The notes beneath the pieces are model-generated. The model had not been told where the DNA came from. It did no database searches and saw only the letters and a program-made list of their open reading frames with translations. A stretch of DNA of 54,299 bases from a virus (Duplodnaviria; Caudoviricetes): the IMG/VR virus record IMGVR_UViG_3300045933_000271, positions 1 through 54,299 of that record. One strand, given 5' to 3'. Position numbers and translations under genes: made by a program. Each line of letters starts with the position of its first letter. Within the stretch, counting starts at the first letter, position 1. Below, piece by piece: positions 1-54,299 of the stretch.

Positions 1-13
1 CCCAGCCGCCTCT
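1..13 (+). repeat. Terminal direct repeat / circular overlap (copy 1)
   Basis: CCCAGCCGCCTCT is identical to 54287..54299. Confidence 0.95.
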
Positions 14-21
14 CTCGCCAT
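1..21 (-). CDS. First 7 codons (MAREAAG) of the sigma factor gene, continuing at 54286
   Basis: ATG at 21..19; after merging the overlap the frame runs without stops into the GTG at 54202 and creates an intact CPQC-x12-H-x4-H finger. Confidence 0.85.
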
Positions 22-185
22 GCCCACTCTCTCGCTCCCCGTTTACTGCGCCTACTGTTCCGCCCGACCCATCCCAATTTTTCAGGGGAGGACCCCCCGG
101 ATCCTCCCCACCCCGGTCGCGGCCTCTCACCCTCTCTGCCTGGCCGCTGCTCCTGTCCCTGGGCTACATCCCCCGGGTTGACGAA

Positions 186-1778
186 CTACTTCTTCTTGGC
201 CGCCTTGGCCTCGGCTTCGAACTTCCCGCGGAGGCCCTTCTCGAGGGCCTTCATGTCGATCTTGAGCGCCTTGACGAAGTCAGCCAGTTCCATCCCGTTG
301 TTCCAGTCCTCGCAGCCGATGTCCTGGATGCAGAGCGAGAAGATCGCCACCTTGGCGAGCTCCGGATCGCCCATGTTGATCAGGGCATCGCGGAGCTTCT
401 TGTTCCTGAGGCCCGCGAGCTTGGGGAACTCCGTCTTCTGAAACTCTCGGTTTTCGTAGCCGACGTTCTCGAATTCGTTGGCGACCAGGAAGGCGACGGC
501 GCTGCGAGGGATCTCCCGGACCTTGTTCGAGATCTGGTGCCAGGCCTCGAGCTTGATCTTCTTCTCCAGCTCGGCCTTCGCCTCGGCGCGCGCCCTCTCG
601 TTCTGCTCCTTGAGCTCCTGGGCGGGGCTCTTGGGCTTCTGCGGGCTGGAGTAGCTGTGGTACTTCGGCTTCGGGTTGTGGACGCTGCAGCTGGCGGCCG
701 TGCAGACCTGGACCGACTGGCCGCGGTTCTTGCCGTCCCAGTAGTAGCCGATCCCAAGGTTCTTGCACCGCTTCTTGCCCGGCTCGTGGTACTCGCCCTT
801 GCGCTTCACGCCGGCGCGGCCCTCGATCGCGGCCAGGCGCCAGTTGTACTGCTCCTCGGAGATGACGATGCACTTGGTCTTCTGCGACTTCAGTCCCTTG
901 ATCTGCCGGTCGAGCCAGGTGTTGAACTTCTCCTTGAAGCAGTCCCGATCCGTGCAGGTCGAATCCTTCTGGACGTCGGGGAAGAGCGCGGGCGTGTTGC
1001 CGGTCCGCTTCGGGCACGCCGCACAGGAGCCCGCCTTGGGGACGAGCTTCTCATCCTTCATGTCCCACGGCATCCGGCCGAGATCTCGGTGGATGTCGTC
1101 GTCGATCCAGCGGGCCAGGGCTCGGACGGGGATCAGGGACTGTTCCATCTTGGGCTTGTGACCCCAGTCGTCGCGATCGCCTTCGGCGACGTCGACCTTC
1201 TGGATGCAGTGCTGGAGGGCTTCCTTCTGATCGTCCGGCGTGAGCCGCGCGATCAGGATGGCGTGACCGGCGGTGATCTGGTCGCTCAGGAAGGCCTGCT
1301 GCGCGGTCCCGGTGAGCTCGGTGAGCTTCAGCCGCTGCCAGATGTAGGACACGCTCTTGCCCACCTGGGCCGCGAGAGACTCGACGTTGTGGCGTTTGCG
1401 CTTCAGGAGCGCCTGGTATCCCTCGGCTTCCTCGAGGGGATGAACGTCCGCACGCTGGAGGTTCTCGATCACCTGGGCCTCGAGGGCCTGGTCATCCGAG
1501 AGCTCGCGGATTATGGCCGGGATCTCGTTCAGGCCCGCCTTCTTCGCGGCCCGGTACCGCCGGGCGCCGGCGACCACTTCGAACTTCGCCCCGATGGGCC
1601 GGACGAGGATCGGGACGATGACGCCCTGCTCCTTGACCGAGGCCGCGAGGTCCTCCATCGCCTTCGGATCGAATGTCCGCCGCGGGTTGGTCTTCGACTC
1701 CACCGCCAGGTCGAGAGCAAGGAGCTTGAACTCCTGCTCGACCGCCGCCGTTTCTGTCGCCACCTTCTCCTCCTTCAC
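186..1778 (-). CDS. parB: ParB/RepB/Spo0J family protein with Cys-rich and coiled-coil C-terminus
   Basis: NPRRTFD..LAASVKEQGVIVPILVRP, VVAGARRYRAA (GxRR CTPase box), IENLQRADVHPLEEAEGY, HTH LAAQVGKSVSYI; CAACPKRTG..CTDRDCF resembles long PRTRC-type ParB. Confidence 0.92.
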   Translation of the reverse strand: MKEEKVATETAAVEQEFKLLALDLAVESKTNPRRTFDPKAMEDLAASVKEQGVIVPILVRPIGAKFEVVAGARRYRAAKKAGLNEIPAIIRELSDDQALEAQVIENLQRADVHPLEEAEGYQALLKRKRHNVESLAAQVGKSVSYIWQRLKLTELTGTAQQAFLSDQITAGHAILIARLTPDDQKEALQHCIQKVDVAEGDRDDWGHKPKMEQSLIPVRALARWIDDDIHRDLGRMPWDMKDEKLVPKAGSCAACPKRTGNTPALFPDVQKDSTCTDRDCFKEKFNTWLDRQIKGLKSQKTKCIVISEEQYNWRLAAIEGRAGVKRKGEYHEPGKKRCKNLGIGYYWDGKNRGQSVQVCTAASCSVHNPKPKYHSYSSPQKPKSPAQELKEQNERARAEAKAELEKKIKLEAWHQISNKVREIPRSAVAFLVANEFENVGYENREFQKTEFPKLAGLRNKKLRDALINMGDPELAKVAIFSLCIQDIGCEDWNNGMELADFVKALKIDMKALEKGLRGKFEAEAKAAKKK

Positions 1779-9048: not shown

Positions 9049-10116
9049 TTGCGTGCCCGGGTTGTACCGCCAGCGGTCTCGCCCGAGATGGAGCGCTGGC
9101 TCTCCCAGCTCGCCAATCGAGGTCTATCCTCGAACACCATCTACGCCTACCGGAAGCGCCTGGACTGGTTTTTTGACTGGCTCCGCGGCACGGGCATGTC
9201 CTTGCTCGAGTTCACCTCCGACGCGATGGAGCAGTGGAAGTCCGACATGCGTGTCGCCCAGAAGCTCTCGATGCAGACGATCAAGGATCGATCCCTCACC
9301 GTAGCCGGCTTGTACGAATGGCTATGGCAGAAGAAGATCGTCTCCGAGCCCATCCACGTTGAGCCCATCAAGGTCCCCAAAAAGATCCCGAGGTATTTGA
9401 CCGAGGACCAGGTCCTGAAGGTGGTCGAGGTCGCGCGTTCGGTGAAGGCGGAGAAGCCCTTCTACCAGACGCGCGACCTCGCCCTCGTTGAGACCTTCTA
9501 TGCAAGCGGCGGCCGACTCTCCGAGGTTCTCAGCATGGACCTCGCCCGGACGAACCTGGACGCGGCCGAGGCGATCATCTCCGCGAAGGGGCAGAAGGAG
9601 CGGCTCCTGCGCCTGACCCCCGCGGCGGTCCGGGCAATCCGCGCCTGGCTTCAGGAACGGGCGGGGAAGCTCGAGGGCATGAAGAAGTCGGGCGAGGACG
9701 CGCTCTGGATCAGCTACTTCGGAAAGCGGCTTTCGGACTCGGGCGTGTGGCTCATCTTCGAGGGCCTCTGGCGCGTGGCGGGCCTGTCGGCGAAGCTCCA
9801 CCCTCACATGCTGAGACACTCGTTCGCCACCCATCTGCTCGAGCGCGGCGCCGACCTCCGTGAGGTTCAGGAACTGCTCGGGCATGGCGACGTCGGGTCG
9901 ACCCAAATCTATACCCATGTGTCCCAGCCCAGGCTGAGGAAGGTCTACCGGCGATCGCACCCGCGGGCGGTGGACAAACCGGTGGAAGAACCGGGGAAAC
10001 CACGCGCGATCGCCGTCACCGTCCACTTCACGGCCGACGAGATCCAGCGTTGCTGCGAGCTCGCTGAGGCTGCGGGGATCCCGCTCGAGGAATGGCTCCG
10101 GGGAAGGGTGCTTTAA
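9049..10116 (+). CDS. XerC/XerD-like tyrosine recombinase (integrase) with C-terminal RHH-like extension
   Basis: SAM-like N-domain (LSSNTIYAY), [50 protein letters not shown]: R-K-H-R-H-Y catalytic set intact. Confidence 0.95.
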
Positions 10117-10118
10117 GG

Positions 10119-10134
10119 GTGCAGACGTCTGCAC
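10119..10134. promoter_or_regulatory. 16-bp perfect palindrome GTGCAGACGTCTGCAC (candidate parS, copy 1)
   Basis: Perfect palindrome 2 bp after the recombinase stop; near-identical copies at 15096, 44890 and 47793. Confidence 0.7.
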
Positions 10135-10513: not shown

Positions 10514-10924
10514 GTGCTCAGGATAGGTCAAAGTTATTGGTTCGGCAGGAACATCAGGCACCTCTACTTCATCGTCTCCGATCCGGATCTTAATCCCGAT
10601 GAAGTGGTCGCCGTCAACATGACGACGATCAATCACGGGGAGAAATACGATTCCTCGTGCGTCCTCCATCCCGGCGATCACGTAGCAGTGACGCGCCCGT
10701 CGTACATCAGCTACTGGAGAATGCAGATTTCCAGCAGATTCAAGATCGAAGACGCAATCGCGATCCGTGTCTTCAGTCAAGACAGGGACCTCCGCCATGA
10801 TGTGCTTAGGATGATTCAAGCAGGGCTGATCAAATCCAAGGACTCAAAGCGCCGGGCGAAGGAGATCCTTATCGACCAGGGCGTGACCGCTGTCGAACTC
10901 GACGCGGCGGAAGAGGAGCTCTAG
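10514..10924 (+). CDS. PemK/MazF-like putative toxin
   Basis: HLYFIVSDP..VVAVNMTT..DSSCVLHPGDHVAVTRPSYISY pattern of MazF-fold proteins; adjacent to a Panacea gene. Confidence 0.65.
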   Translation: MLRIGQSYWFGRNIRHLYFIVSDPDLNPDEVVAVNMTTINHGEKYDSSCVLHPGDHVAVTRPSYISYWRMQISSRFKIEDAIAIRVFSQDRDLRHDVLRMIQAGLIKSKDSKRRAKEILIDQGVTAVELDAAEEEL

Positions 10925-11490
10925 GAGTTGAGGACCGAGCCCAGGAAATAGTCCTCGGCAGCTTCTGCTCGGATCCGATCGATTTGCTCCTCGGACTTGC
11001 CGACTTGCCGGAGAATCTCTTCGACCGGGATCTGAAGTCTTGAGCCGTTGGGATTCTTCCACTCGGGCAGGCCATGGGTTAGCTCGACCAGGTCCCACTT
11101 GCTCATCCCTTCGCACGCGTCGCTGACCTCGTCGAGGAGCGCCGTCTCGGACTCGGAGAGGTTTCCGGCGCCAGGATCGTCTTGGAGGGCAACGTCTACC
11201 TCACTGGTCTTCTTGATGAACCTATCCCAGATCCCGGCCCTGGGCGTGAATGCCCCGCCTTCGCCGGTGATGAGGTTGAGCAGATTACTCAGCACGGGGC
11301 CCTTATTCATGGAGACGTAGAGATCCCCGACGATGGGCCGGCCGTTCGCGCGGAAGCTCTCGCGCTCGGCCAGATAGAGGAGCTTCATCAGGGCCAAATA
11401 GGGCAGCGTACCCTGGCGGCGCTTCAACAGCCAAGCAGCCACCTGGGTGGCCTTGGCCTCGTTGAACCGGTACTTGATCTGATCTTTCAT
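10921..11490 (-). CDS. Panacea-domain (DUF4065/SocA-like) antitoxin
   Basis: FNEAKATQVAAWLL..LMKLLYLAERES..GRPIVGDLYVSMNKGPVLS..LVELTHGLPEWK. Confidence 0.88.
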   Translation of the reverse strand: MKDQIKYRFNEAKATQVAAWLLKRRQGTLPYLALMKLLYLAERESFRANGRPIVGDLYVSMNKGPVLSNLLNLITGEGGAFTPRAGIWDRFIKKTSEVDVALQDDPGAGNLSESETALLDEVSDACEGMSKWDLVELTHGLPEWKNPNGSRLQIPVEEILRQVGKSEEQIDRIRAEAAEDYFLGSVLNS

Positions 11491-11755: not shown

Positions 11756-11846
11756 GGAGGGTTGACCGAACGGTAAGGAGCCCGGCTTTAGAACCGTGGC
11801 GACCGCCTAGCGGCGGTTTGGGGGTTCGAATCCCCCACCCTCCTCA
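11756..11846 (+). tRNA. Non-canonical class II (long variable arm) tRNA, Ser-like scaffold, 8-nt anticodon loop CUUUAGAA
   Basis: Acceptor GGAGGGT/ACCCTCC 7 bp; D loop with GG; T arm GGGGG-TTCGAAT-CCCCC; variable arm GACCGCC-TAGC-GGCGGTT; anticodon stem CCCGG/CCG(T)GG; discriminator U, no encoded CCA. Confidence 0.85.
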
Positions 11847-12692: not shown

Positions 12693-13613
12693 ATGACCAT
12701 TTTCGTAAGCGCCCTGGTCCTGATGCTGATGGGTCCCCAGGAGCTCTCCCCCGCCGAGAAGAAGAAGCTATTCGAGCTCCGTCTCGCAGTCGAGAAGAGC
12801 CCCGAGGACGCGGCCGCGAACCTCGCCCTGGGGAAGTTCCTCTGCTTCGTCATTGGAAACTGGAACGAGGGGCTACCCATCTTGGCCAAGGGCGGCGACG
12901 ACCAATTCGCCCACACGGCCAGGCGGGATCTCGAACCGAAGGAGAACGCCCTCTTTTCCATCGAGGTCGCCGACATGTGGCTCCTTCTCGAGGGGAAGAA
13001 CCGGCCGATCGCGGCGCGGATCCGGGAGCGGGTGCTGTTCCACTTCGCCGAGGCCTGGCCGAAGATCTCGGATCCCGTCTGGAAGGACAAGACCCGTGAG
13101 CGTCTTCGGACGCTGCAGCAGAAGGGGCCGGAGTCCAAGACTACGGGGCCCGCGCCGGCAAACTGGTCGGCGGTGAATGCCAGTCTCGGCGGGGATCGTC
13201 AGTATGCGCGGACTGGAGCGACGTCGTTAAAGATCGCACCTCCAGACCCGAGTAAGAAGAACTTCCAGGGTGGACTATGCTCAGAGCTCATGCCGTGCGC
13301 GGCCGGGGCGAAGATCAAGTTCTCCGGTTGGGTGATGACCGGCGGTGCGGACGGGATCGACGAGCTCCGGATCAAACTGCGAAACGCGAAGCAGAGTGGC
13401 GGGGAGCAGCTGGCGATCGTTGCGGTAAAGACGTCGCCCGACCTACCCTACTGGGTGAAAGTCGAGGGCGAGACGACGGCTCCAGAAGGGACCAACAACG
13501 TCGAGATCTCCTTCAAGCGCACACCGAACGCCACGGGCTTCGTCTTCCTAGACGACTTCTCCGTGACCGCGGATGGAAAGGAGCTCCTCAAGAACGGGAG
13601 CTTCGAGAAGTAA
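12693..13613 (+). CDS. Secreted moron: helical domain plus CBM4/9-like galactose-binding fold
   Basis: Signal peptide; AAANLALGKFLCFVIGNWNEGLPILAKG; ARTGATSLKI..FSGWV..WVKVEG..VFLDDFSV..LLKNGSFE. Confidence 0.75.
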   Translation: MTIFVSALVLMLMGPQELSPAEKKKLFELRLAVEKSPEDAAANLALGKFLCFVIGNWNEGLPILAKGGDDQFAHTARRDLEPKENALFSIEVADMWLLLEGKNRPIAARIRERVLFHFAEAWPKISDPVWKDKTRERLRTLQQKGPESKTTGPAPANWSAVNASLGGDRQYARTGATSLKIAPPDPSKKNFQGGLCSELMPCAAGAKIKFSGWVMTGGADGIDELRIKLRNAKQSGGEQLAIVAVKTSPDLPYWVKVEGETTAPEGTNNVEISFKRTPNATGFVFLDDFSVTADGKELLKNGSFEK

Positions 13614-14412
13614 ACCGCGCGGCCGCGAGCTCGGCCGCCGCGACGACCGCCTCTGGGGAGACCTCCATCAGGCACGAGGGGCCGAACTTCCCGGGCTTCG
13701 CGCAATGCTCGCCGCATCCAAGGCACCGTTCCACAGTCCCGAGGGCGGTCGTATTCCAGTAGGCGCGGTTCCTGCCCGGGACGGGCCCGAAGATGACGAC
13801 TTGAGGCGTCCCGACGGCGGCCGCGAGATGGAAGAGCCCGGAATCGTTCCCGAGGTAGAGGGTACAGCGCGCGAGGAGCGCGGCCGTCTCCCGAATCGAG
13901 AGCTTCCCAAGGAAAGATCGGTCGCTGGCGATCGTCCCGCCATCAATTCCCGGGCTCGCCGGATGCTTGCCGACCTCGAGGACCCGCCAGCTGGCTGCTC
14001 GAAGGAGCTCGGAGAGCCGGCGGAAACGGCCGAGAGGCCAACGCCTGGCCTCCTTGCCGGCGTAGGAGTCGATCGCGATCGTCCGGGCCCAATTCTTGAT
14101 TCCGAAGTCGAGCCGGCGCTCGCCTTCGGTGAGGAAGATCTCCGGCGTGTCGTCGACGAGCTCGAGATTCAGTTGCTTGGCGAACTTCCTGGGGAGCGAG
14201 GTCTGGTTGTAGTGCAGGCCGTGACAGACCGAGACGACGCGGCCGGAGTCCATCGCCCCGGAGAGGACGTTGGGGTTCCCCTCAAGGATCTCGGGACGTT
14301 GGAATCCGTCGACGAAAATTCGGTCGTTCGGGCTGAGGCGATGAAGCTCGCGAAGGACCGGGGTCATCGCGACCTCGTCGCCGAGACCGCCCCATTCCAT
14401 CCTGACTTTCAC
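13588..14412 (-). CDS. Glycosyltransferase family 9 (heptosyltransferase-like)
   Basis: GGLGDEVAMTPVLREL, RRWP, LGKLSIRETAALL..YLGNDSGLFHLAAAVGTPQVVIFGP, CLMEVSPEAV; GTGA coupling at 14412. Confidence 0.92.
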   Translation of the reverse strand: MKVRMEWGGLGDEVAMTPVLRELHRLSPNDRIFVDGFQRPEILEGNPNVLSGAMDSGRVVSVCHGLHYNQTSLPRKFAKQLNLELVDDTPEIFLTEGERRLDFGIKNWARTIAIDSYAGKEARRWPLGRFRRLSELLRAASWRVLEVGKHPASPGIDGGTIASDRSFLGKLSIRETAALLARCTLYLGNDSGLFHLAAAVGTPQVVIFGPVPGRNRAYWNTTALGTVERCLGCGEHCAKPGKFGPSCLMEVSPEAVVAAAELAAARFTSRSSRS

Positions 14413-15005
14413 GCGCCCACCCACGGCTTGATGTACACGGCCTGGTTCGCGAAGGCGTGAACGATTTCGAGGCGTCGCTCGTCGATCGCCTGTCGTACTC
14501 CCTTGCAAGTGCTCATCTCGTAGTCGTCGAAGACGATCGCCCCTCCCGGAGAGAGACGCGGGAGAACGTGGTCTAGAAAGGCCCGGCAGCTTTCAAGAAG
14601 ATCGCCGTCGAAGTGGGCGAGCGCGAAAGGACCCTCGAGAGGGTGCTGGGCCATGCCCTCGGGGAACGTCATCGGAACGGGGGTCGCGTTGGGGAAGGGA
14701 CCCACGAGAGTCCGGACCCGATCGATCGACGTCCCACCGAAGTCCCCCGCCTTGTGATGATCGACGTCCGGCTTGGCCTTCGCGGGCATCCCGGCGAATG
14801 TGTCCACACCGTAGACGCGGCGCATGGGGCAAGCGGCCGCCAAAAGGTATAGCGACCCGCCTCGGAAGGTACCGAGCTCGAGAACGTCGCCGGGAACGCC
14901 TGCCGTCACCCCGGCCATGAGCCACAAAGCCCGGCAGCGCTTCTCCGTCAGAAGCGTATGGTGTTGGGCGACGGCGTAGGCTTCGCTGAACGTCGGGGAT
15001 TTCAT
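14409..15005 (-). CDS. TylF/MycF/NovP-like SAM-dependent sugar O-methyltransferase
   Basis: VPGDVLELGTFRGGS, GVDTFAGMP, ALAHFDGDL, LSPGGAIVFDDY..CKGVRQAIDE. Confidence 0.9.
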   Translation of the reverse strand: MKSPTFSEAYAVAQHHTLLTEKRCRALWLMAGVTAGVPGDVLELGTFRGGSLYLLAAACPMRRVYGVDTFAGMPAKAKPDVDHHKAGDFGGTSIDRVRTLVGPFPNATPVPMTFPEGMAQHPLEGPFALAHFDGDLLESCRAFLDHVLPRLSPGGAIVFDDYEMSTCKGVRQAIDERRLEIVHAFANQAVYIKPWVGA

Positions 15006-15823: not shown

Positions 15824-16234
15824 TCAATTCCTTGGAAGTCTCTCTCCGAGCTTTCTGGTCGTAGACCGCAGGGATTTGATCGAGTTGGCGAGCTCGTCGG
15901 CCTTCCTCAAGGCCGCCCGCAGCTGGTCTGGCTTGAACGGCTTCTGGAGGATCTCAACGACCAGGGCATCCTCCGGAGCCTCGTGTGCGAAGGCCGATAG
16001 GATGATGACCGGAACGTCGTTCCGCTTGCCGACGAGCGACTCGATCACCCGAGTGCCGTGCCCGTTCGGAAGCCGCAGGTCCAGCACGATCGCCGACAAG
16101 TCGATGATGTCCAGATGCATCAGGGCCTCGCGGACCGTTCCGCAGTCCACGATCCCGTAACCGGCATTCGAGAGGATCAGGCAGATCGCATTCCGGGCCC
16201 GGGGATCGTCTTCTACGACGAGCACGCGCTTCAT
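15824..16234 (-). CDS. Single-domain response regulator receiver (CheY-like)
   Basis: RVLVVEDD, IVLDLRLP (phospho-acceptor Asp52), PVIILSA, LQKPF; ATGA-coupled to the upstream gene. Confidence 0.93.
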   Translation of the reverse strand: MKRVLVVEDDPRARNAICLILSNAGYGIVDCGTVREALMHLDIIDLSAIVLDLRLPNGHGTRVIESLVGKRNDVPVIILSAFAHEAPEDALVVEILQKPFKPDQLRAALRKADELANSIKSLRSTTRKLGERLPRN

Positions 16235-33328: not shown

Positions 33329-34357
33329 CTACGCGGGGATCACCTGGGCCGTGACGATCGCGCGCGTGACCTTCATCACCGGCAGGCGCCGGTAGCGGCG
33401 GTAGAGCACGATCTTGGGCGGGTTGTCCTCGTGCTTCGACCACGCCCCGGCGCCCTGGACCAGCTGCATCTTGCCGGAGCTGTTCAGCACCGCGACGGTG
33501 CCTCGGGCGAACTCGCCCCAGCTGCGGTCGGCGGCCGGCAGGAACACGACCTTCCCGGCGGGGATGTGGTAGGTCCGGTTGCCCGTCACCGGGTGCTTGT
33601 AGTAGTGCAGGACCTCGACCCACGTCATCCCGTAGAGATTCGGGATCTCTCCGGAGCCCGCCATGCGCTCCGCGGTGGGGGTGCCGTTGATCAGGTCGCG
33701 CGTGGGCTCGTTGCCGAAGAGGGCGGACTTGACGCCGGGGCCCATGAGGGCGATACCCAGCTCTCGGCCCGCTTCCTCCCGGGGAACCTTGCGGATCGCC
33801 TCCACGTCCACGTCGATCTTCGCGGCCCCGTTCGCCCACGAGAGCGGGATGGTGCCGTTGCCGCCGCCGCCGCCGATCTTGAAGTGGTTGGCGGCGTTGA
33901 ACTTGTAGTCGATCGTGTGGAGGAGGTTCTTGATCTTGACGCTGATGCTGCCCTGGATCGCCTGGGAGAGCAGCATCTCGTCCTGGCGCGCGTGGCGCTG
34001 GGACAGGCGGTTCATCTTCTCCGCCACCTTGTTCTCGATCGTCTCCGCGCCGTCGGAGCCCGCGCGGCGGATCTGGATGACCTCTTCGCCGTCGAAGCTG
34101 TCCTCGTCGAAGCTGGTGATCAGCTTCGCCGAGCGGTTGCCGAGGACCTCCTCGTCCATGACGTTGGCCGGGTCGTTGTCGCCCGTGAAGGCGCCCACGT
34201 CCTCGAGCTCCGTCTTCTCATCCCACTGGTAGCTCTTGCCGTCGATGGGCTTCGACGCCAGGATGCCCCGGTTCAGGAGGGGCGTGCCGACGCTCTTGTA
34301 CTTCTGCACGAGTTCCGTCAGGGTCTCCTGCCGGAAGATTTCCATGTCCTTGCTCAT
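33329..34357 (-). CDS. Major capsid protein (lambda gpE-like, HK97 fold)
   Basis: 342 aa; RQDEMLLSQAIQG..IDY..SWAN..YHIPAGKVVF..RRLPV; follows protease and decoration genes. Confidence 0.88.
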   Translation of the reverse strand: MSKDMEIFRQETLTELVQKYKSVGTPLLNRGILASKPIDGKSYQWDEKTELEDVGAFTGDNDPANVMDEEVLGNRSAKLITSFDEDSFDGEEVIQIRRAGSDGAETIENKVAEKMNRLSQRHARQDEMLLSQAIQGSISVKIKNLLHTIDYKFNAANHFKIGGGGGNGTIPLSWANGAAKIDVDVEAIRKVPREEAGRELGIALMGPGVKSALFGNEPTRDLINGTPTAERMAGSGEIPNLYGMTWVEVLHYYKHPVTGNRTYHIPAGKVVFLPAADRSWGEFARGTVAVLNSSGKMQLVQGAGAWSKHEDNPPKIVLYRRYRRLPVMKVTRAIVTAQVIPA

Positions 34358-39820: not shown

Positions 39821-41329
39821 CTATTCCTCGCTCGTGGCTCCGATGCGCGCGAGGTCCTCCTGGACCTGCTTTTCCATCTCGGGGGTGACCTTGACGCCGC
39901 CCTCTCCGCCGGCGATCGCCGCGGCCTTGGCGTCCCGCTCCTCGCGCTCCTGATCCCACTCCTCCTGCGCCTCGTCGAGGGGGCGCAGCTGCATCTCCAG
40001 GTCGTCGGCCATGCCGATCGCGTCGAGGCGCTTCCGGAGGGGAACGGACTCGCCTTCCGCCAGGGTGGCCTCGGCGTCCATGATCTTGAGGAGGACCTCT
40101 TTGTAGAGCTGCTGCTTGCCGGGCGAGAGGCCCCAGGCCTTGATGAAGGTCTTTGACTCCTCGAGGGCACGGCGGCCTTTGTTGAACAGGATCACGCGGT
40201 CGACGACGGGCTGCAGGATCCTGGACACGAACTCGCCGACCCGGGACTGCTGGATCTCGCCCAGGCGGTTCTCGTGGACCTCCGCTCGCGCGCGGGATCC
40301 CTGCGGCTCCGACGTGGCCGACTCGCCCGGGATGAGCCCGCACTTCAGGATCCGGACGCCCTCGGCGTCGATCGCCTGCTGGAACATGTCCCCGCGCTTG
40401 TCGTCGGTGAGGTACTGGATCTCGTTGTGGCGGTTGCCCTTCTCGTCGCGCTTCCCGGAGAGGACCACGTAGGAACGGCTCTTCAGCGCCGCGAGGGCCT
40501 TCCGCATGAGCTCTGTCGCGTCGATGGGCTTGTTGTCCTTGTCCATCGCGGTGCCGTTGGTGGCGTAGCCGATAGGCGTCGGGTGAGCCCGCCCCTCGAA
40601 GTAGGTGTTGCGCAGGAAGATCAGCCCCGACTGGTCGTACCACGGGGTGTAGGCGGAATCGTAGATGCCCAGGCCGGTCAGGCGGCCCCACTCATCCTCG
40701 ACCCGGTGGGTCCACAGGAGGAGCTCGGAGGCGTCCACCGTGACCGACTTCCCATCGGTGCGGTCCTGCGTGACGGACGAGAACTCGTCGGTCTTCTCGT
40801 CCGAGTGGAGCGTGATCGTGCGCGGATCGATGCCCTTCACGCGCTTGATGGACCAGGCCGCCGGCAGCGTGATCGAATCGGTCTGCCCCTTGGCCTTGTC
40901 CTCTAGGTCGAACGAGAAAGGACCGGATTGCCAGATGGGCTGCTGGACCTGGAAGCCGTAGAGCGGAGAGAGCGAAGCCGACCTGGAAAGCTCCGGAAAG
41001 ATCGGTCGGACCATCGCGTCCACGAGAGCGGCGAGCTGCGGATCCCTGCTCTCGATCGTCCACCGCATGTTGACGATTGGCGAGCGGACGAGCGCCGACA
41101 TGAAGTCGACGTCGGGCGAGTAGCGCATCATGATCTTGCGCGTGATGCCGACCGAGTGCGGCTTGAACTCGCCGATGATCTTCGTGACGTAGGGCGGGAA
41201 CTCGTGGCTCCCGTAGTGGGCCTGAAGTTCCATGTCGGATTCAGGCGTTGGACGGTCCCCGTCGGCCGCCAGCTGGATCCGATTGAACATGCTGCCGACC
41301 ATGGACAGGGCGCGGTTGAGGAGCATCAT
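39821..41329 (-). CDS. Portal protein (DUF935 / Mu gp29-like)
   Basis: YGFQVQQPIW, IDPRTI, WGRLTGLGIYDSAYTPWY..YFEGRAHPTPIG, GSRARAEVH; ATGA-coupled to terL. Confidence 0.88.
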   Translation of the reverse strand: MMLLNRALSMVGSMFNRIQLAADGDRPTPESDMELQAHYGSHEFPPYVTKIIGEFKPHSVGITRKIMMRYSPDVDFMSALVRSPIVNMRWTIESRDPQLAALVDAMVRPIFPELSRSASLSPLYGFQVQQPIWQSGPFSFDLEDKAKGQTDSITLPAAWSIKRVKGIDPRTITLHSDEKTDEFSSVTQDRTDGKSVTVDASELLLWTHRVEDEWGRLTGLGIYDSAYTPWYDQSGLIFLRNTYFEGRAHPTPIGYATNGTAMDKDNKPIDATELMRKALAALKSRSYVVLSGKRDEKGNRHNEIQYLTDDKRGDMFQQAIDAEGVRILKCGLIPGESATSEPQGSRARAEVHENRLGEIQQSRVGEFVSRILQPVVDRVILFNKGRRALEESKTFIKAWGLSPGKQQLYKEVLLKIMDAEATLAEGESVPLRKRLDAIGMADDLEMQLRPLDEAQEEWDQEREERDAKAAAIAGGEGGVKVTPEMEKQVQEDLARIGATSEE

Positions 41330-42894
41330 CCGAACACGCTCCCCTGGGGCGTGCCGAAGACCTCGTTGTCCTCGGGGCCGAGCATCTGGTCGGGGTCCAG
41401 GACCTCGGGATCGGGCTGGTCGGCCAGCCAGTTGTAACCCTGGGCGGCTCCGTCGATCATGTCGATGGGCTTCCCGCCGGGGAAGCGGCGGACCTGCTCG
41501 AGGAACTTCTCGTTCCAGTCGGCCTCGAGGAGGAAGACCTTGCCCGCGTGCGCGGCGGAGGCGAGGGGGTCGGCGCGGAGTTGCTTCGAACCTTCGTTGC
41601 CGGCAACGACGATGTGGGTGGAGTGACCGTCGAGCTTCTTCTCGATGGCCTCGGCCTGCGTCTTTCCTCCGGATCCGGGCTCCTGCTCGATGATGACGTC
41701 GATGCTCTTGCCGTCCGTCTTTGCGACCTGCTTGATTTCGGCGTCGCGCTCGCCGCTCGACCACCAATCGGCAACGATGTTCGTGATGTAGTACTCGCGG
41801 TCCTCGCCGATGCCGGTGAAGCCGATCTTGACGCCCGCCGTCTGGGCGGCCGACTTGTTCTTCGTGCCGGCCAGGTCCCAGGAGCGGCAGTAGCGGAGGT
41901 TCGCGGGGACCTGCTTCACGATCTTGAACCACGCGCTCTGGAACTCGCCTCCCTCGCGCGGGTAGGGCTGCTGGAGGTACATCGTGGCGAACCAAAAGGG
42001 GAGGGTGTTCTTCTGGCGCTTCTCCATCGTCGCCAGGCTGAACAGCTGCGGGCAGACGACGTCACCCTTCCTACGAGACCAGCCCAGGTCTTCTTTGCGG
42101 CCGTCGGGATGCTCGATGTGGAAGGCCTCGTCCTTGTCGGCGATCGCGGGCAGGATGAGCTCGGTCCACTTCTCGCCGCTCTCCTTCGCCGTCTGCTGAA
42201 TCCGCGCGACCAGGTCCTTATGGGACCAGCGCGTCATGACGACGATCTTGACGCCGCCTTCCTTGAAGCGGCTGGAGAAGACCGACTGGTACCAGTCGTG
42301 GATCTTCTCCAGGTGAGCTTCGGACGAGGCCTCCTCGGCGTTCTTGATCGGGTCGTCGATAATGCCGATGTCGACTGGCCGGCCGGTAAGCGGTCCGCCT
42401 ACGCCGGTCGTCACCATGCCGCCGCGGCGGAACTCTCCGCTCCTGAGGTCGTGGAGCTCCCAGTCGTCGGCTGCGCGCTTGTCCTGGCGGACTGTGATGC
42501 CGAATACCTCAGGTCCTACGGTTTCCATCAGATCGCGCACCGCGCGGCCCTTGTCGGAGGCGAACGTGGCCTCGTAGGACGATAGGGCGATGCACTTGTC
42601 GGGGAAGTTGCCGCAGATCCAGGCGGGGAAGTACTTCGACCAGAAGTCGCTCTTGCCGATCTGTGGCTGGATGCAGACGAGGAGGTTGAAGCCGACGCCG
42701 GCGAGCAGCGCGCCGGCGATCACCAGCGCGACGCGGTTGAACAGCGCCGTGTGCCTATACAGGACCCATTCCCCCTTACTGGCGAACATGCCGAGGTGTC
42801 CCGGCGTCCACGCTGCCTGACGCGAGTCGTTCAGCGCATCGAGCAAGAAGTTCTCGGCCTGCCTCGTCTGCGAGGAGTTTGCGAGCATTGCCAT
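41326..42894 (-). CDS. terL: Terminase large subunit
   Basis: QPQIGKS Walker A, GVGGPLTGR, IIDDPIK Walker B, VMTRW, YLQQP, SWDLA nuclease motif, IEQEPGSGGK. Confidence 0.95.
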   Translation of the reverse strand: MAMLANSSQTRQAENFLLDALNDSRQAAWTPGHLGMFASKGEWVLYRHTALFNRVALVIAGALLAGVGFNLLVCIQPQIGKSDFWSKYFPAWICGNFPDKCIALSSYEATFASDKGRAVRDLMETVGPEVFGITVRQDKRAADDWELHDLRSGEFRRGGMVTTGVGGPLTGRPVDIGIIDDPIKNAEEASSEAHLEKIHDWYQSVFSSRFKEGGVKIVVMTRWSHKDLVARIQQTAKESGEKWTELILPAIADKDEAFHIEHPDGRKEDLGWSRRKGDVVCPQLFSLATMEKRQKNTLPFWFATMYLQQPYPREGGEFQSAWFKIVKQVPANLRYCRSWDLAGTKNKSAAQTAGVKIGFTGIGEDREYYITNIVADWWSSGERDAEIKQVAKTDGKSIDVIIEQEPGSGGKTQAEAIEKKLDGHSTHIVVAGNEGSKQLRADPLASAAHAGKVFLLEADWNEKFLEQVRRFPGGKPIDMIDGAAQGYNWLADQPDPEVLDPDQMLGPEDNEVFGTPQGSVFG

Positions 42895-47265: not shown

Positions 47266-49044
47266 TCAAGCGTCTCTCCCTTCCGCGAACAGCCACGCGG
47301 CCGCGCGGGCCCGCCCCTTGCCGGTGATTTCGAGCATCCCCGCGGTCTTGAGGGTGCTCATGTTCTTCTCGAAGCCGCTCGAGGTGACCGTCGTGCCGGA
47401 CCTGGCTGCAATCTCCTCGCGCGAGAGGTCGTGAGGGTAAACCTGGATCAGGTTGTTCAGGATGCAGCTCTGCGGCGTCGAGATCGCCGCGGTGCACTTC
47501 TGGATGAGCAGCTCGTGGGTCGGCGCCGGCTGATCACCGACTTCGCCACGCCCGGGCGAGAGGATCCGGAGCATGCCGGGCCCGCCCGTCTCGAGGTAGC
47601 CGCCGGTCTTGAGCGTCGAGACGTTCTTCTCGAAGCCGCTGGACTTGTGGGTCGTATCGGCAAGTGGCGCGATCCACGTGCGCGGCACCTCGCTGAAGCC
47701 CAGGGCCTCGAACATGGCCAGGGCCTGGAGGATCCGGAGCTGGGGACGGGAGACGGTGGTGTCGCGGGTCTCCTGGTCCTTCGGCGCCAGGAGTGCAGAC
47801 GTCTGCAGTTGGTGGATCGCCTCGACCGGCTGGGGCTGAGGCTTTGCCCGGATGCCTGCCGACGGCATCGGCGTCAAGACCGGCTCGGGCCGGCGGGCCC
47901 GCTGCTCGATCTTCTTCACCTGATCCTGGAGCAGATCGGAGAAGCCGCGCAGCGTGATCGCGACGTTGTTGCACTTGCCGGCGGCCATCACGGCGTTCGC
48001 CATGGCCTTCTCCAGGCGGACCAGCTGCGCGGGCGGGATCACCGGGACCTCGACCCGAACGGGTTTCGAGGGGGCCGGGAGGGGAGTGGGGACCTCCTTC
48101 GGCCTGGAGGCGAGTTGGGCCTTGAGGGAGCGGATCTCGGTGCGCATCGCGATCTCCGTCATCAGCTTCTCCTCGGCCTCCTTGGGCAGGTCCGCCAGCT
48201 TGGGCAGCAGGGCCCGGATCTTCTCCGGCGCCGGCGGCGGAGTGTCCGAGATCTCGGAGCCGACTTCCGGGTGCGTGGTTTGGACGGGCCCGACCGAGAG
48301 CAGGATCCGGTCGTTCGCGATCGCCGGGCCCATGGCGTAGAACTCGCCGGGCTCGCGCTTCTTGATCTCGACCCGGAACTCGTCCCGCTCGTCGCGCGAG
48401 ACGCTGAGGACCTCGACGGCCCGGTCGATGTCCACGCCCTCGCGCGTCATGCCGACCAGGCGGTTGAGCAATTCGGCCGTCACCGTCTTCGAGATCTTGG
48501 CCAGGCGCTGGGTGAAGGGGACGAGGCAGATCCCGCGCTTCCGGCCGCGCGTCGCGGCATCCTGCACGGCGCCGAAGGCCTCGCTCTCGCCCATCCCCTT
48601 CTCGGGACAGAAGACGTGCGCCTCGTCCAGCATGACGACGAGCGGGCGCCACAGGCTCTTGGGCAGGTTCATCAGGGCCTCGAGGAACGCCCGGACCCAC
48701 GCGTGGCGCGTGGGCGGCTTCAGGTCGTAGAGGTCGAAGACCGCGGAGGCCTGGAGCTCCCGGAGCTTGTGGGCCACGAGCGGCGCCGTCCGCGGATCCG
48801 CCGGCGTCTCGCCGCCCTTGCCGACCAGTACGAAGCCATACTTTTCGCGCAGCGTGGCGAACTCACCCTCGGGGTCGATGATCCAGACGGGTACCTTCCC
48901 GAAGAGCTGCTCGGCCAGGCGCCGCAGGAGCCAGGACTTGCCGCCGCCGGAGTTCGCCGTCACCAGCGCGCGCGAGCGCAACAGCACCGCCAGGTCGAGG
49001 TGGACCGGGTGCCGGCCGGTCCGCCCGATCTCGATTTTCGCCAC
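47266..49044 (-). CDS. HerA/FtsK-superfamily (DUF87-like) ATPase with tandem C-terminal wHTH repeats
   Basis: ANSGGGKS Walker A, IIDPEGEF, MLDEAH Walker B, RGRKRG, TQR; repeats SSGFEKNVSTLKTGGYLE / SSGFEKNMSTLKTAGMLE; AAGGAGGT RBS before GTG 49044. Confidence 0.88.
   Translation of the reverse strand: MAKIEIGRTGRHPVHLDLAVLLRSRALVTANSGGGKSWLLRRLAEQLFGKVPVWIIDPEGEFATLREKYGFVLVGKGGETPADPRTAPLVAHKLRELQASAVFDLYDLKPPTRHAWVRAFLEALMNLPKSLWRPLVVMLDEAHVFCPEKGMGESEAFGAVQDAATRGRKRGICLVPFTQRLAKISKTVTAELLNRLVGMTREGVDIDRAVEVLSVSRDERDEFRVEIKKREPGEFYAMGPAIANDRILLSVGPVQTTHPEVGSEISDTPPPAPEKIRALLPKLADLPKEAEEKLMTEIAMRTEIRSLKAQLASRPKEVPTPLPAPSKPVRVEVPVIPPAQLVRLEKAMANAVMAAGKCNNVAITLRGFSDLLQDQVKKIEQRARRPEPVLTPMPSAGIRAKPQPQPVEAIHQLQTSALLAPKDQETRDTTVSRPQLRILQALAMFEALGFSEVPRTWIAPLADTTHKSSGFEKNVSTLKTGGYLETGGPGMLRILSPGRGEVGDQPAPTHELLIQKCTAAISTPQSCILNNLIQVYPHDLSREEIAARSGTTVTSSGFEKNMSTLKTAGMLEITGKGRARAAAWLFAEGRDA
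47793..47808. promoter_or_regulatory. Candidate parS palindrome copy 4 (15/16), intragenic
   Basis: GTGCAGACGTCTGCAG within the linker (LQTSAL) of the HerA-like gene. Confidence 0.6.
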
Positions 49045-51626: not shown

Positions 51627-51863
51627 TCAATCGAACTTGGTTCTGCAGGCGGGACAATACGCACGCCTGCTCGTTTCCCTGGATGCACCGACCTTCACCT
51701 TCTGGTCGCCCTGGCCCACGACGCGCGCGGGCAGCAGCTCCGTCTTGTCGATGGAGATCCACCGCTCCGGAGGCGAGGGAAGGAGCTCGGCCGCGCGCGG
51801 GCCGGTCTGCATCTCGACCAGGCCGCAGCCGTCGCACTTCCATTCCCTCGCCGGCGTCATCAT
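51627..51863 (-). CDS. Small zinc-ribbon protein
   Basis: CDGCG..YCPAC; ATGA-coupled. Confidence 0.7.
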   Translation of the reverse strand: MMTPAREWKCDGCGLVEMQTGPRAAELLPSPPERWISIDKTELLPARVVGQGDQKVKVGASRETSRRAYCPACRTKFD

Positions 51864-52168
51864 GCTTCCTTCTGCACGGTCCCCGGCCGCATGCTGGTCT
51901 TACCCTGGACTGCCGCCCACCAGTTACAGGCCGCGGCCGCGACCGTGATGATCCGGTGGAGCTTCTTCTCCCGGTTGCCGCCCGGGTTGTGGAGCGCCTT
52001 GCCGGCGAGGTAGCCGATCAGCCAGAACCAGTCGGCGCAGGTCTTGCCGGCGTCTCCCTTCTCGGCCCAGCGGTCGCGCTGATACGCGGCCTCCTTCTTC
52101 ACGGCCTCGAAGAAGTCCTCGATCTCGGGCGTCCCGAGCTCCTTCCTGCATGGTTCGCAGAGGTTCAT
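51860..52168 (-). CDS. Conserved helical phage protein
   Basis: EAAYQRDRW..DWFWLIGYLAGKAL..ITVAAAACNW. Confidence 0.75.
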   Translation of the reverse strand: MNLCEPCRKELGTPEIEDFFEAVKKEAAYQRDRWAEKGDAGKTCADWFWLIGYLAGKALHNPGGNREKKLHRIITVAAAACNWWAAVQGKTSMRPGTVQKEA

Positions 52169-52171
52169 GCC

Positions 52172-52477
52172 CTAGCCCTCCGCTCCGTTGTCGGCCACAT
52201 GATGGTGCTCGTACTTCTCGAGGATCTTCCGGGCGTCGTCGAACATCGCCGGCGTGAACCCCAGCGCGTGGGCGATGTAAGCCAGCACGTTCGCCCGGTT
52301 GTGCCAGCAGGCCTCGCCGGCGGGAGACCTGGCGCAGCCCTTGTCCTCATGCTGGCCCGCCGCCTCGAAAGCCCAGCGCTTGGTCATCTGGATGGCAACG
52401 TGCTCGCGCGCCCCCGGGTCCACGTCCTCGAGGAGCTCCGGGATCCGCTTGAGCTGTGTGTTGCAGTCATCGCACAT
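52172..52477 (-). CDS. Hypothetical protein
   Basis: MCDDC start, TGATG coupling, GGAGG RBS. Confidence 0.7.
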   Translation of the reverse strand: MCDDCNTQLKRIPELLEDVDPGAREHVAIQMTKRWAFEAAGQHEDKGCARSPAGEACWHNRANVLAYIAHALGFTPAMFDDARKILEKYEHHHVADNGAEG

Positions 52478-52818
52478 CAGACGGCCTCCTTCGTCGGCGC
52501 CGCCGGTGCCACGACCTGGCTCTCGTCGCTCTTGGCCTTGGCCTCCTCCTCGCGGAGCTTGGAGAGCAGCTCGTGGGCCGCGATCGTGGTCACGCCCTTG
52601 GGCGCCTTCTCCCACCAGGCGAGCGCGAGCATCTCCGAGAGCGGGAGCTCGAGGTGCCGGCAGAGCAGGGGGATGATCTTCGGCGACGGCGCGTTCACCT
52701 TGCCGTTCTCGATGCCCGAGATGTATCCCTTGTGGGACTTCACCGCCTTCGCGGCTCTCTCCAGGGTCCAGCCTTTCGCTTTGCGCGCGTCCTTGACGCG
52801 CTGTCCGAACGTCAGCAT
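52477..52818 (-). CDS. XRE-family HTH regulator (no S24 peptidase domain)
   Basis: FGQRVKDARKAKGWTLERAAKAVKSHKGYISGIENGK. Confidence 0.9.
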   Translation of the reverse strand: MLTFGQRVKDARKAKGWTLERAAKAVKSHKGYISGIENGKVNAPSPKIIPLLCRHLELPLSEMLALAWWEKAPKGVTTIAAHELLSKLREEEAKAKSDESQVVAPAAPTKEAV

Positions 52819-52858: not shown

Positions 52859-54299
52859 TTAGGGAAGGTCAGGGTCTTCCTCGACGCTGCCGTCGTTATC
52901 CCGGCGCGGGCGCCTCGAAGGCTTCCCCCCCCCCTCGTCCTTCGCCTTCTCGATGGCGGCGATCGCGCGGTCGATCTCCCCCAGCTCGGGGATCTGGGCG
53001 AGCAGCTCGCTGCGCCTGGCCGTCAGCGCGTTGAGCGCGATGTCGAAGCCCCTGGCCGCGCCGTTCGAATGCTGCTTCACCGCCAGCCTGGCCCGTCGCG
53101 CGGCCGCGGGGCCCTTGGGCTTGCGGCCGCGCCTGGGCTTCGCCTGGCCCGGGTGCTCATGCCGCCGATGAGCCCCGAGCGCCTGCGGGTTCTTGAATTC
53201 CATCCCCGGGCACTTCTCGCACTTGAGATCCGCCACGATCGCCTCCTTCGCCACATCCGCCACCACATCGGCCTCCACCGCGGCGACAGGCGCCGAGCCG
53301 TCGCAGAGCGCGATGGAGCCGTTCCGTCCTTCTCGTTTGCCGTTGGGAGTGAATTGCATTCCGAACCTCCCCGCCCGGGTCGCGCCGGCGAGGAGCGTGC
53401 CGTGGACGTGGTGCCGCCTCTTGAGGATGGCCAACGCCTTGTGCTCGACCTGCCGGACCCGTTGACGGCTGACACCGATTTCCTGGCCGACCTCGTCGAG
53501 GGTGCGGGGCACCTTGCCGTCGAGACCGTAGCGACGAACGAGAATCAGCTTCTCACGATTGCTCAGCCCGATGAGGATGCCAGCGAGCTCCTCCTTCGCG
53601 AGGACCTGGTCGGGCTCCTCCGGAGCTGCCAGAAGGCTCGCGATCGTATTGTCGCCGTCGCTGCTCGCGGCCACCTGGTCCATGCTGACCGTCCGCGCGG
53701 ACGACCTGGCCAGGACCAGGTCGAGGGTTCCTCGACCGATCTTGAGCTCCTTCTCGATGTCCTCCGGTTGCCAGCCGTCGAGCAGAAGCTTCCGGGCCTT
53801 GCTGATGTTCGCGCGCACGCCCTCGGGAACCGCGACCACGTGGGCCTGGTGCGAGTACCGCATGAGGAATTGCCGGATCCACCAGATGGCGTAGGTGGAG
53901 AACCTGAAGCCTTTCGACGGGTCGAAGAGCTCGGCCGCTCGGATCAGGCCCAGGTTGCCTTCCTGGATCAGGTCCATCTCGCGCGAGCGGTTGTGGGCGC
54001 GACGCTTCCGGACGAGGGATACGACCAGCCGAAGATTACTCTCGACGAGGAGCTTCTTGGCGTCGTCTGCCCTGGGTCCGTCGGCCTGGATCAGCCTCCC
54101 GAGTGCGACCTCTGCCTCGTGCGTCAGGAGACTACGCCCGGCCGATTCCTGACAGTACGCCTCGATCTGGTCGCGGCTCTTGCCGATCGGCTCACCGCTC
54201 ACCCGAGCATGCCGGTCCAGAAGATGGATGCCAAGCCTCTCGATGGAGCCGGTGTCTTCCTTGCACTGAGGGCAGAGAATCCGCCGCCCAGCCGCCTCT
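52859..54299 (-). CDS. Phage sigma-70 family factor flanked by two C2H2 zinc fingers (starts at position 21 across the junction, about 482 aa)
   Basis: Region 1.2 LLTHEAEVAL; region 2 NLRLVV, DLIQEGNLGLIRA, FDPSKGFRFSTYAIWWIRQ; region 4 RTLDEVGQEIGVSRQRVRQVE; fingers CPQC..H..H and CEKC..H..H. Confidence 0.92.
   Translation of the reverse strand, partial: EAAGRRILCPQCKEDTGSIERLGIHLLDRHARVSGEPIGKSRDQIEAYCQESAGRSLLTHEAEVALGRLIQADGPRADDAKKLLVESNLRLVVSLVRKRRAHNRSREMDLIQEGNLGLIRAAELFDPSKGFRFSTYAIWWIRQFLMRYSHQAHVVAVPEGVRANISKARKLLLDGWQPEDIEKELKIGRGTLDLVLARSSARTVSMDQVAASSDGDNTIASLLAAPEEPDQVLAKEELAGILIGLSNREKLILVRRYGLDGKVPRTLDEVGQEIGVSRQRVRQVEHKALAILKRRHHVHGTLLAGATRAGRFGMQFTPNGKREGRNGSIALCDGSAPVAAVEADVVADVAKEAIVADLKCEKCPGMEFKNPQALGAHRRHEHPGQAKPRRGRKPKGPAAARRARLAVKQHSNGAARGFDIALNALTARRSELLAQIPELGEIDRAIAAIEKAKDEGGGKPSRRPRRDNDGSVEEDPDLP
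54287..54299 (+). repeat. Terminal direct repeat / circular overlap (copy 2)
   Basis: Identical to 1..13. Confidence 0.95.

Follow-up and report, generated by a model that had tools for sequence, protein, structure and literature searches.

Close to the end of the 54,299-nucleotide virus record IMGVR_UViG_3300045933_000271, which was analyzed in its entirety and is called the window in the following, a soil phage encodes a sigma factor whose core appears to be of the RpoD/RpoS type and which is predicted to carry a classical C2H2-type zinc finger at either end. What is new here is that both finger modules, as judged from alignments, belong to a family of small phage proteins that stand alone. 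Because these modules form a pre-existing stand-alone family tied to a ParB-like gene, the picture shifts from a sigma factor that has gained fingers to a finger protein harboring a sigma core. To this reading as a whole, a sigma core within a finger protein whose C-terminal finger would contact DNA upstream of the -35 element, we assign a probability of about 0.5. The finger-flanked phage sigma is a real and rare variant that is apparently undescribed.

The gene continues across the ends of the record

The minus-strand frame of the finger-sigma gene (52859..54298) extends without interruption to the window end and comprises 479 amino acids. The first 13 nucleotides of the window are an exact direct repeat of positions 54287-54299 (CCCAGCCGCCTCT), and when the ends are joined on this repeat the frame gains three codons (Met-Ala-Arg) upstream, starts with an ATG and reaches a total of 482 codons (Table 1). 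This ATG is preceded by a purine-rich stretch and, at a distance of 7 codons, by a stop codon; the two full-length relatives of the protein share its beginning in the form of MAR.. and MAK... The overlap and the relatives thus confirm the original prediction, according to which the start codon lies across the junction. The repeat is shorter than the minimum that IMG/VR uses for a circular call, and it is compatible with ends that are joined in a circle or a concatemer; with the terminase gene 11 kb away, a filled-in cohesive end is a less likely origin.

Conservation along the protein is uneven. Identity to the more distant relative (P0003) is 64% in the N-terminal finger, 14% in the linker behind this finger, 61% in regions 1.2-2, 34% in region 3 and 59% in region 4, and the linker from region 4 to the C-terminal module is 21% identical between the lineages. 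As the N-terminal finger is conserved to the same degree as regions 2 and 4, it is translated and under selection, which contradicts a start at the GTG at 54202, an alternative that had been named as a possible refutation of the N-terminal finger. Furthermore, parts of the gene are matched at 0-1 differences by soil contigs of other samples (X2 records 12 and 16; X3 records 18 and 24), and two contigs (230 and 330 nucleotides) of two other samples extend beyond the last base of the window. It is therefore hardly credible that the N-terminal finger is untranslated read-through at a contig end in front of a true start at 54202, or that the architecture is the product of an assembly chimera. The frame indeed runs off a record that IMG/VR classifies as linear, and the GTG is present, but the 13-nucleotide overlap yields an in-frame ATG, both the N-terminus and the order of the parts recur in two independent relatives (contigs of 53 kb and of 12-33 kb), and the soil contigs span the gene past the window end. 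The gene is real and intact, with 482 codons. In the soil contigs, the depth is increased 10- to 100-fold over 53834-53995, within sigma region 2, with many loose ends; this is not a property of the phage, because at 85% likeness the sigma genes of other organisms map there.

A sigma core resembling RpoD and RpoS

The central part of the protein shows clear matches to the Pfam models Sigma70_r2 (residues 84-147, E 3.3e-17, 62.5 bits with a cut-off of 24) and Sigma70_r4 (residues 244-293, E 1.5e-12, 47.3 bits with a cut-off of 24.1). Region 1.2 is weak in Pfam (E 0.11), yet the alignment with RpoS already begins at residue 41: the best sequence match among solved structures is RpoS of Pseudomonas aeruginosa (PDB 7vf9_F), which covers residues 41-294 with an E-value of 1.3e-39. 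Regions 1.2, 2 and 4, as named in the original prediction, are thereby recovered. Between regions 2 and 4 there are about 95 residues with region-3-like helices, which the AlphaFold model places at residues 159-200 (three helices), followed by a low-confidence stretch at 202-231; a further, N-terminal helix spans residues 41-72. The Pfam model Sigma70_r3 is not detected in the window protein and gives a weak match only in P0003. The mean predicted local distance difference test (pLDDT) value of the full-length model is 73 with a predicted template modelling (pTM) score of 0.38; the sigma core is confident, and the top Foldseek matches are sigmaS and sigmaA within RNA polymerase (RNAP) initiation complexes.

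The protein passes the generic sigma-70 model TIGR02937 (88 bits, cut-off 42.9). The top NCBIfam models are of the RpoD/RpoS type and all stay far below their equivalog cut-offs (Sig70-cyanoRpoD 163 vs 384.5 bits; rpoS_proteo 156.6 vs 378.7 bits). In alignment with bacterial RpoD matches, the motifs of regions 2 and 4.2 are near consensus and the loop of region 3.2 is shorter. Taken together, the sequence comparisons point to an RpoD/RpoS-type sigma-70 core with regions 1.2, 2, a diverged region 3 and region 4, which lacks region 1.1; it resembles sigma factors of group 1/2 and is a member of no named equivalog. Like RpoS and RpoD it aligns in regions 1.2, 2, 3 and 4 and finds sigmaS and sigmaA as structural neighbors, but it differs from them in the sub-cut-off scores, the missing region 1.1 and the shorter region 3.2. 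An extracytoplasmic function (ECF, group 4) sigma factor was considered and rejected, as region 1.2 and the region-3-like helices are present in addition to regions 2 and 4.

As a phage gene with a sigma-70 core, the finger-sigma gene is comparable to the phage sigma factors of PHROG 351 (E 1.7e-58), such as rpoD of Microcystis phage MaAM05 and the sigma factor of Vibrio phage VAP7. MzaA of the MZA anti-phage system likewise has a sigma-70 core within a multi-domain protein, in this case a much longer one, and the core matches with 142 bits in NCBIfam and an E-value of 3.3e-29 in PADLOC. However, the equivalog cut-off for MzaA is 800 bits, the alignment is restricted to the core, and the extension of MzaA is N-terminal and unrelated.

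Two predicted C2H2 fingers at the ends of the protein

Both fingers fit the pattern C-x2-4-C-x12-13-H-x2-5-H with conserved hydrophobic positions. In a six-frame translation of the whole window this classical C2H2 pattern occurs twice, and both matches fall into the finger-sigma gene; in 100 triplet-block shuffles the average was 0.09 matches per genome and the maximum was 2. For the N-terminal finger, the four ligands are invariant in all three full-length sequences, and the AlphaFold model shows a strand-strand-helix arrangement with the helix at residues 19-33 and mean pLDDT values of 71-89 in blocks of 10 residues. The C-terminal finger is modeled with strands at 358-359 and 367-368 and a helix at 371-381 (pLDDT of about 92). 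The match of the C-terminal finger to Pfam zf-C2H2_4 (E 0.003, 18.5 bits) remains under the cut-off of 27, and its homologues exceed the Pfam C2H2 cut-offs in P0125 (27.7 vs 27), in an open reading frame (ORF) of contig L003 (29.1 vs 25) and in P0132 (67 vs 25). The N-terminal finger has no Pfam match in the window protein, and its counterpart in P0125 reaches 21.4 with a cut-off of 25. The solved sequences nearest to each finger come from eukaryotic C2H2 fingers and align in register, with weak E-values of 0.028 and 0.085, and the top score in the ESM Atlas (0.89, a small zf-C2H2 cluster) is below the 0.9 bar and serves as a lead only. Based on pattern and model, we conclude that both ends carry predicted classical C2H2-type fingers, and the central claim of the original prediction, a sigma-70 factor between two such fingers, is upheld.

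The helix of the C-terminal finger contains the motif QALGAH. Of 24 family sequences, 11 carry this motif and 16 carry Q[AG]xGAH. QALGAH is one residue apart from the QALGGH motif of the plant Q-type C2H2 proteins (ZPT/EPF), in which the fingers are single or widely spaced (PMC10604892, PMC11585113). The plant motif is reported to lie in the DNA-contacting surface (PMC3268024) and is described as plant-specific in one account (PMC11585113); convergence is just as likely a source of the resemblance. A C2H2-type zinc finger for DNA binding is also described for bacteria in the Ros/MucR proteins (PMC9779718, PMC7710501), but the fingers of the window protein differ from these in their classical eukaryote-like spacing and their short strand-strand-helix model, and membership in Ros/MucR was rejected, with no Pfam match to this family at E<=1 in the window protein or at E<=0.05 in 17 relatives. 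A zinc-binding anti-sigma domain was also rejected, with no Pfam match at E<=1.

The fusion is rare

A full-length search, in which 8,000 proteins were scored, returned 6,621 proteins at E<=0.001. Among the best 120 of these, P0002 and P0003 alone cover more than 66% of the protein, and the remaining ones match the sigma core only. P0002, encoded on a contig of 53 kb, shares 89% identity with the window protein; for P0003 the identity is 44%, and the members of its cluster come from contigs of 12-33 kb. In GenBank phages, 214 of 50,697 records match the protein, none of them over at least 80% of its length: the matches end near residue 296 and none shows the finger modules. A common architecture, which would have spoken against the original prediction, is thus not what these searches found. 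For the whole finger-sigma protein there is no related locus among the viral contigs, and no solved chain covers the N-terminal finger or the C-terminal 180 residues. In a tree based on the columns of the sigma core, five finger-sigmas are placed on one side of a branch with 100/100 support, with long branches, which fits a single origin of the finger-sigmas. In the literature searched, we found no paper on a sigma factor with C2H2 fingers and no mention of 'QALGAH'.

The finger modules form a stand-alone phage family

Using the C-terminal 183 amino acids, a phmmer search of 1.84 billion representatives retrieved 15 matches: the sigma fusion P0002, a weak match on a 929-amino-acid protein and 13 small proteins of 97-255 amino acids. 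Among them are P0122 (E 1.1e-21, 54% identity) and P0123-P0125 (E 1e-12 to 4e-10). A profile search with alignment A2, for which the candidates were pre-selected by shared words, found P0002 as the sole match in the range of 411-2000 amino acids and 10 small proteins in the range of 53-410 amino acids; within the window the profile detects one copy with an E-value of 8.8e-50. The small proteins of the family (P0122-P0135 and relatives) share the finger, the basic linker and the hairpin in alignment A2, and many have other zinc ribbons in front. The C-terminal module of the finger-sigma protein is a collinear, sequence-significant member of this stand-alone phage finger-hairpin family.

The small proteins P0125, P0133 and P0139 are annotated as 'predicted RNA-binding Zn-ribbon protein involved in translation (DUF1610 family)'. 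Following this annotation, the fingers might bind RNA, for instance the leader of an mRNA or the nascent transcript, in the manner of certain small zinc-ribbon proteins. However, the names are automatic, and on these proteins the matching Pfam model HVO_2753_ZBP, with a cut-off of 33.2, reaches only 15.8-17.5 bits and is outscored by C2H2 models. We consider such a role in RNA binding very improbable.

Within the C-terminal part, a flexible linker with pLDDT values below 50 at residues 301-346 connects region 4 to the finger, which is followed by a basic linker with low pLDDT at residues 391-412. The basic linker contains the sequence KPRRGRKPK, which had been taken for an AT-hook-like motif. 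The core of an AT-hook is G-R-P flanked by basic residues. The stretch reads RGRKP, there is no Pfam AT_hook match at E<=1, and only the basic charge is kept among relatives: across 12 aligned relatives, the commonest residue is present in 3 of 9 at two arginine positions and in 3 of 12 at the glycine position. The assignment as AT-hook was therefore dropped. The coiled coil of the original prediction also has to be replaced, as the AlphaFold model gives a two-helix hairpin at residues 414-456 (helices 414-435 and 437-456, pLDDT of about 90). In the alignment columns, both a hydrophobic face of the hairpin and its P-E-L turn are conserved. A specific structural analogue of the hairpin was not found in VIA-align, in which the best hit among 48,161 chains (Z 4.4) covers the hairpin only and reflects a common helical arrangement. 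A comparison of the C-terminal model with BFVD gave no match at E<=0.001 and merely local stretches of 22-30 residues on C2H2-type viral proteins.

A run of 10 G in the coding frame (52925-52934, minus strand) is translated as GGG at the transition from hairpin to tail, and its length is unchanged in contigs of the runs X1 and X2. As P0002 and P0122 terminate exactly at this GGG, the tail with its docking-like motif is an add-on. The acidic motif DGSV-x-E-x-PDLP was found in 4 of 24 family sequences, at the C-terminal end in the window protein and within the basic linker of P0003, P0126 and P0128, a behavior that is typical of a movable short docking peptide.

The link to a ParB-like gene

If the ends of the window are joined, the ParB-like gene is followed directly by the finger-sigma gene. 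The same arrangement was found without a sigma factor in the IMG/VR phage G001 (42.9 kb, 92% complete), in which Sigma70_r2 is found nowhere. This phage encodes P0125 (216 amino acids), which is collinear with both ends of the sigma protein, namely by its N-terminal finger with residues 1-57 (E 3e-4) and by its C-terminal module with residues 351-458 (E 4e-16), and a middle zinc ribbon of P0125 occupies the place of the sigma core. Its gene is located directly downstream of a ParB-like gene whose product is 42% identical to the window ParB over 441 residues. Because of the collinear ends and the same slot after an orthologous ParB gene, the finger-sigma is best described as a P0125-like protein with an inserted sigma core.

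A locus search with alignment A3 gave one viral locus and two metagenome loci and none in species genomes. On the metagenome contig L004, the finger-module gene and a ParB-like gene share 4 nucleotides, at the end of the former and the start of the latter; contig L003 starts right at the finger-module gene, and its upstream context is absent. P0127 has no locus among the viral contigs. Remote relatives with several fingers of the type CPECGxxF...LGxHRR are encoded in soil phage records (L006 4941-5801, L007 4449-5348 and L008 4986-5660), and the one in L007 combines HTH_23 and the same finger type in one phage protein. Neither ParB_N nor Sigma70_r2 was found in these three records, which are incomplete (86%, 31% and 41%). 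Classical-looking C2H2 fingers appear to be recurrent in regulatory proteins of phages.

In all three context-readable loci of the close subfamily (the window, G001 and L004), the finger-module gene adjoins a ParB-like gene, and as the identities between the ParB proteins range from 42% to 29%, this pairing has outlasted much divergence. The finger-hairpin module could therefore be a partner of the ParB-like protein, with the sigma factor recruited or controlled by DNA-bound ParB, and the conserved hydrophobic face of the hairpin needs a partner. However, the adjacency may be mere conservation of the gene order in the early region, and the records of the three remoter multi-finger relatives are without ParB_N, so that we regard a role as ParB adaptor as improbable. 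In a specific form of this idea, drawn by analogy and slightly more doubtful still, the module would be a dedicated partner of the ParB clamp, and the fused sigma factor would couple promoter recognition to ParB in such a way that RNAP is brought to phage DNA loaded with ParB, or is licensed there. Some plasmids pair a small DNA-binding protein with a regulator of the ParB family. The ParB-like protein of the window is extended by a long Cys-rich part, and a ParA-like gene was not seen next to its gene in this phage with an integrase; its role may be in regulation and not in partition.

What the fingers may add to the sigma factor

Sigma factors are thought to locate promoters via their own regions 2, 3 and 4. 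Going by its sequence, the core of the finger-sigma very probably binds the core RNAP of the host and directs the polymerase to phage promoters, and the fingers probably provide the sigma factor with additional hold on DNA or on a protein partner. Region 4.2 has its C-terminus at the upstream border of the -35 element, from where a finger with a basic flank on a tether of about 60 residues could reach the DNA further upstream. We assume that the C-terminal finger and the basic flank would hang from the end of region 4 via this flexible tether and would contact either the DNA just upstream of -35 or the operator of the ancestral finger protein. Such a contact would add a third determinant of promoter selectivity or anchoring to a sigma factor in which the parts that read -10 and -35 look housekeeping-like. 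It is argued by analogy and stays tentative, with the odds leaning somewhat against it. The N-terminal finger would stand in place of region 1.1 of primary sigma factors, and the hairpin might serve as an oligomerization or partner-docking surface, with either itself or another protein as hydrophobic partner. Reading of DNA by the finger is in line with the recurrence of QALGAH, with the HTH_23 fusion of the same finger type in L007 and with the basic flank.

Several observations weigh against DNA contact by the fingers as part of promoter selection. The usual base-reading positions of a finger helix are -1, +3 and +6, and in the C-terminal finger these are N/S, A and A, small residues that are better suited for backbone or protein contacts. 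C2H2 fingers also bind proteins, and a finger of EEA1 is among the nearest solved sequences of the N-terminal finger (E 0.45, non-significant). The pTM of 0.38 makes the placement of the modules relative to the sigma core uninformative. Scans of the window yielded no candidate promoter or finger-binding motif: the number of promoter-like sites with sigma-70 consensus is 5, with about 4.9 expected from shuffles, and the enriched intergenic k-mers are mainly purine-rich GAGAG runs that resemble ribosome-binding sites. Finally, searches of species genomes with the large terminase and with the finger-module alignment A3 revealed no prophage relative that would point to a host.

A different view of the extra domains comes from the ECF sigma factors, of which at least 26 groups are listed as including members whose N- or C-terminal extensions have a predicted regulatory role (PMC8999054). 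Conformational change, protein interaction and proteolysis are given there as mechanisms, and CorE/CorE2 is described with a Cys-rich, metal-sensing C-terminal extension (PMC8999054). CorE/CorE2, ECF41, ECF42 and ECF52, the latter with a zinc-finger domain, resemble the window protein in having extra terminal domains, some of which are metal-binding (PMC8999054, PMC5826349). By analogy, the fingers and the hairpin could fold onto or off regions 2 and 4, or respond to zinc, redox state or a partner, and thereby switch the sigma factor. The long disordered tethers predicted by the model (residues 33-39 and 301-346) would permit such a fold-back, and Cys2His2 sites would be chemically apt for sensing. 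In contrast, ECF sigma factors have regions 2 and 4 only, plus regulatory extensions, whereas the window protein combines an RpoD/RpoS-like core including regions 1.2 and 3 with C2H2 fingers at both ends. Moreover, the same modules stand alone in phages without any sigma factor, which implies a function of their own, and the similarity to zinc domains of anti-sigma factors is missing, as stated above. We therefore consider a regulatory extension rather unlikely as explanation and prefer the finger protein with an inserted sigma core and a DNA-contacting C-terminal finger.

To our knowledge, additional sigma domains are well known only in ECF sigma factors, where they regulate the activity. A housekeeping-type sigma core with a C2H2 finger at both ends would represent a natural sigma factor with an add-on module for binding of nucleic acids or partners. 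If the C-terminal finger reads DNA, this would be a compact route for a phage to provide a generic sigma factor with a private set of promoters, which, if true, would be of interest for research on transcription mechanisms and for the design of orthogonal sigma factors. If the ParB reading were true, a sigma factor would be targeted by a partition-type clamp, beyond promoter sequence alone. Furthermore, the analysis exposes a small uncharacterized C2H2 family of phages with a QALGAH motif close to the plant QALGGH and a recurrent link to a ParB-like gene.

Table 1. Features of the finger-sigma locus and marker genes of the window.
Feature	Position	Strand	Details
Finger-sigma gene, main body	52859..54299	-	residues 4-482 and stop TAA at 52861-52859; open frame; Pfam, NCBIfam and PHROG sigma matches
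Finger-sigma gene, start across junction	1..21	-	ATG at 21-19; 13-nt terminal overlap
N-terminal C2H2 finger (predicted)	54209..54274	-	C-x2-C-x12-H-x4-H (CPQC..), residues C9-H30 of P0001; pattern scan
Sigma regions 1.2 and 2	53849..54178	-	residues 41-150; Pfam Sigma70_r2 at 53858-54049; RpoS alignment
Diverged sigma region 3 and region 3.2 linker	53594..53848	-	residues 151-235; RpoS alignment
Sigma region 4	53420..53569	-	residues 244-293; Pfam Sigma70_r4
Flexible linker, region 4 to C-terminal module	53237..53410	-	residues 297-354; pLDDT <50 for 301-346
C-terminal C2H2 finger (predicted), QALGAH helix	53153..53221	-	CEKC...HRRHEH, residues C360-H382; Pfam zf-C2H2_4, AlphaFold model
Basic disordered linker	53060..53152	-	contains KPRRGRKPK at 53114-53140; low pLDDT at residues 391-412
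Two-helix hairpin	52931..53059	-	residues 414-456; AlphaFold helices 414-435 and 437-456, pLDDT ~90
C-terminal tail motif DGSVEEDPDLP	52862..52894	-	after 10-G run at 52925-52934
ParB-like gene	186..1778	-	ParB_N and HTH_ParB, 530 aa; Pfam, PHROGs; immediately upstream of finger-sigma gene
XRE-type helix-turn-helix (HTH) gene	52477-52818	-	Pfam HTH_3, E 2e-11; 40 nt downstream of sigma gene
Tyrosine integrase	9049-10116	+	PHROG/Pfam scan
E-type major capsid protein	33329-34357	-	PHROG/Pfam scan
Large terminase	41326-42894	-	PHROG/Pfam scan

The phage and further observations in the window

The window has a G+C content of 64.9% and carries nearly all of its coding on the minus strand; its topology is linear according to IMG/VR and its completeness is estimated as 100% by CheckV. 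PHROG and Pfam scans of the 58 called genes revealed, besides the marker genes of Table 1, a helicase, a single-stranded DNA-binding protein (SSB), a Sak4-like annealase, a DnaB-like helicase and tail genes. As integrase, capsid, terminase and tail genes are among the scanned genes, the window represents, judged by its gene content, a temperate, siphovirus-like phage. A close isolate is absent, since the top terminase match in GenBank phages is only 33% identical to the window terminase. Several soil metagenomes contain near-identical DNA, and no RNA-derived run is among the sequencing runs listed for it.

The early region of the phage is rich in zinc-ribbon proteins. Small frames with CxxC pairs are located at 2083-2610, 51627-51863 and 51860-52168 (minus strand), and one of them looks like a topoisomerase-type zinc ribbon. 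In the 164-nucleotide spacer between the ParB-like gene and the sigma gene there is an 11-bp G+C-rich hairpin at 85-109 (minus strand), which is followed by an A-rich and not a U-rich stretch; the predicted RNA fold of this spacer is not better than that of shuffles (z -0.92), and a sigma-70 consensus scan upstream of the finger-sigma gene found no site.

Direct-repeat families in the window were attributed to codon-bias noise, and repeated 12-14-mers amounted to just one palindrome pair. A palindrome of 14-16 nucleotides with the core GCAGACGTCTGC is present in two copies, one at 10119-10134 directly after the integrase gene and the other at 47793-47807, and could serve as an operator or in recombination. 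ARAGORN made only two tRNA-like calls (11756-11845 and 41392-41475), both with abnormal anticodon loops and one of them within the terminase gene, which are probably false positives.

Host-like accessory genes are also present, namely a family 9 glycosyltransferase of the heptosyltransferase type (13588-14508) and a stand-alone response-regulator receiver domain (15824-16234), both on the minus strand, and the heptosyltransferase-type enzyme hints at a Gram-negative host. A protein with a Panacea (SocA-like antitoxin) domain (10921-11490, minus strand) is encoded beside a convergent small gene of PHROG 19071 (10514-10924, plus strand), and this pair near the integrase is possibly a toxin-antitoxin or counter-defence pair.

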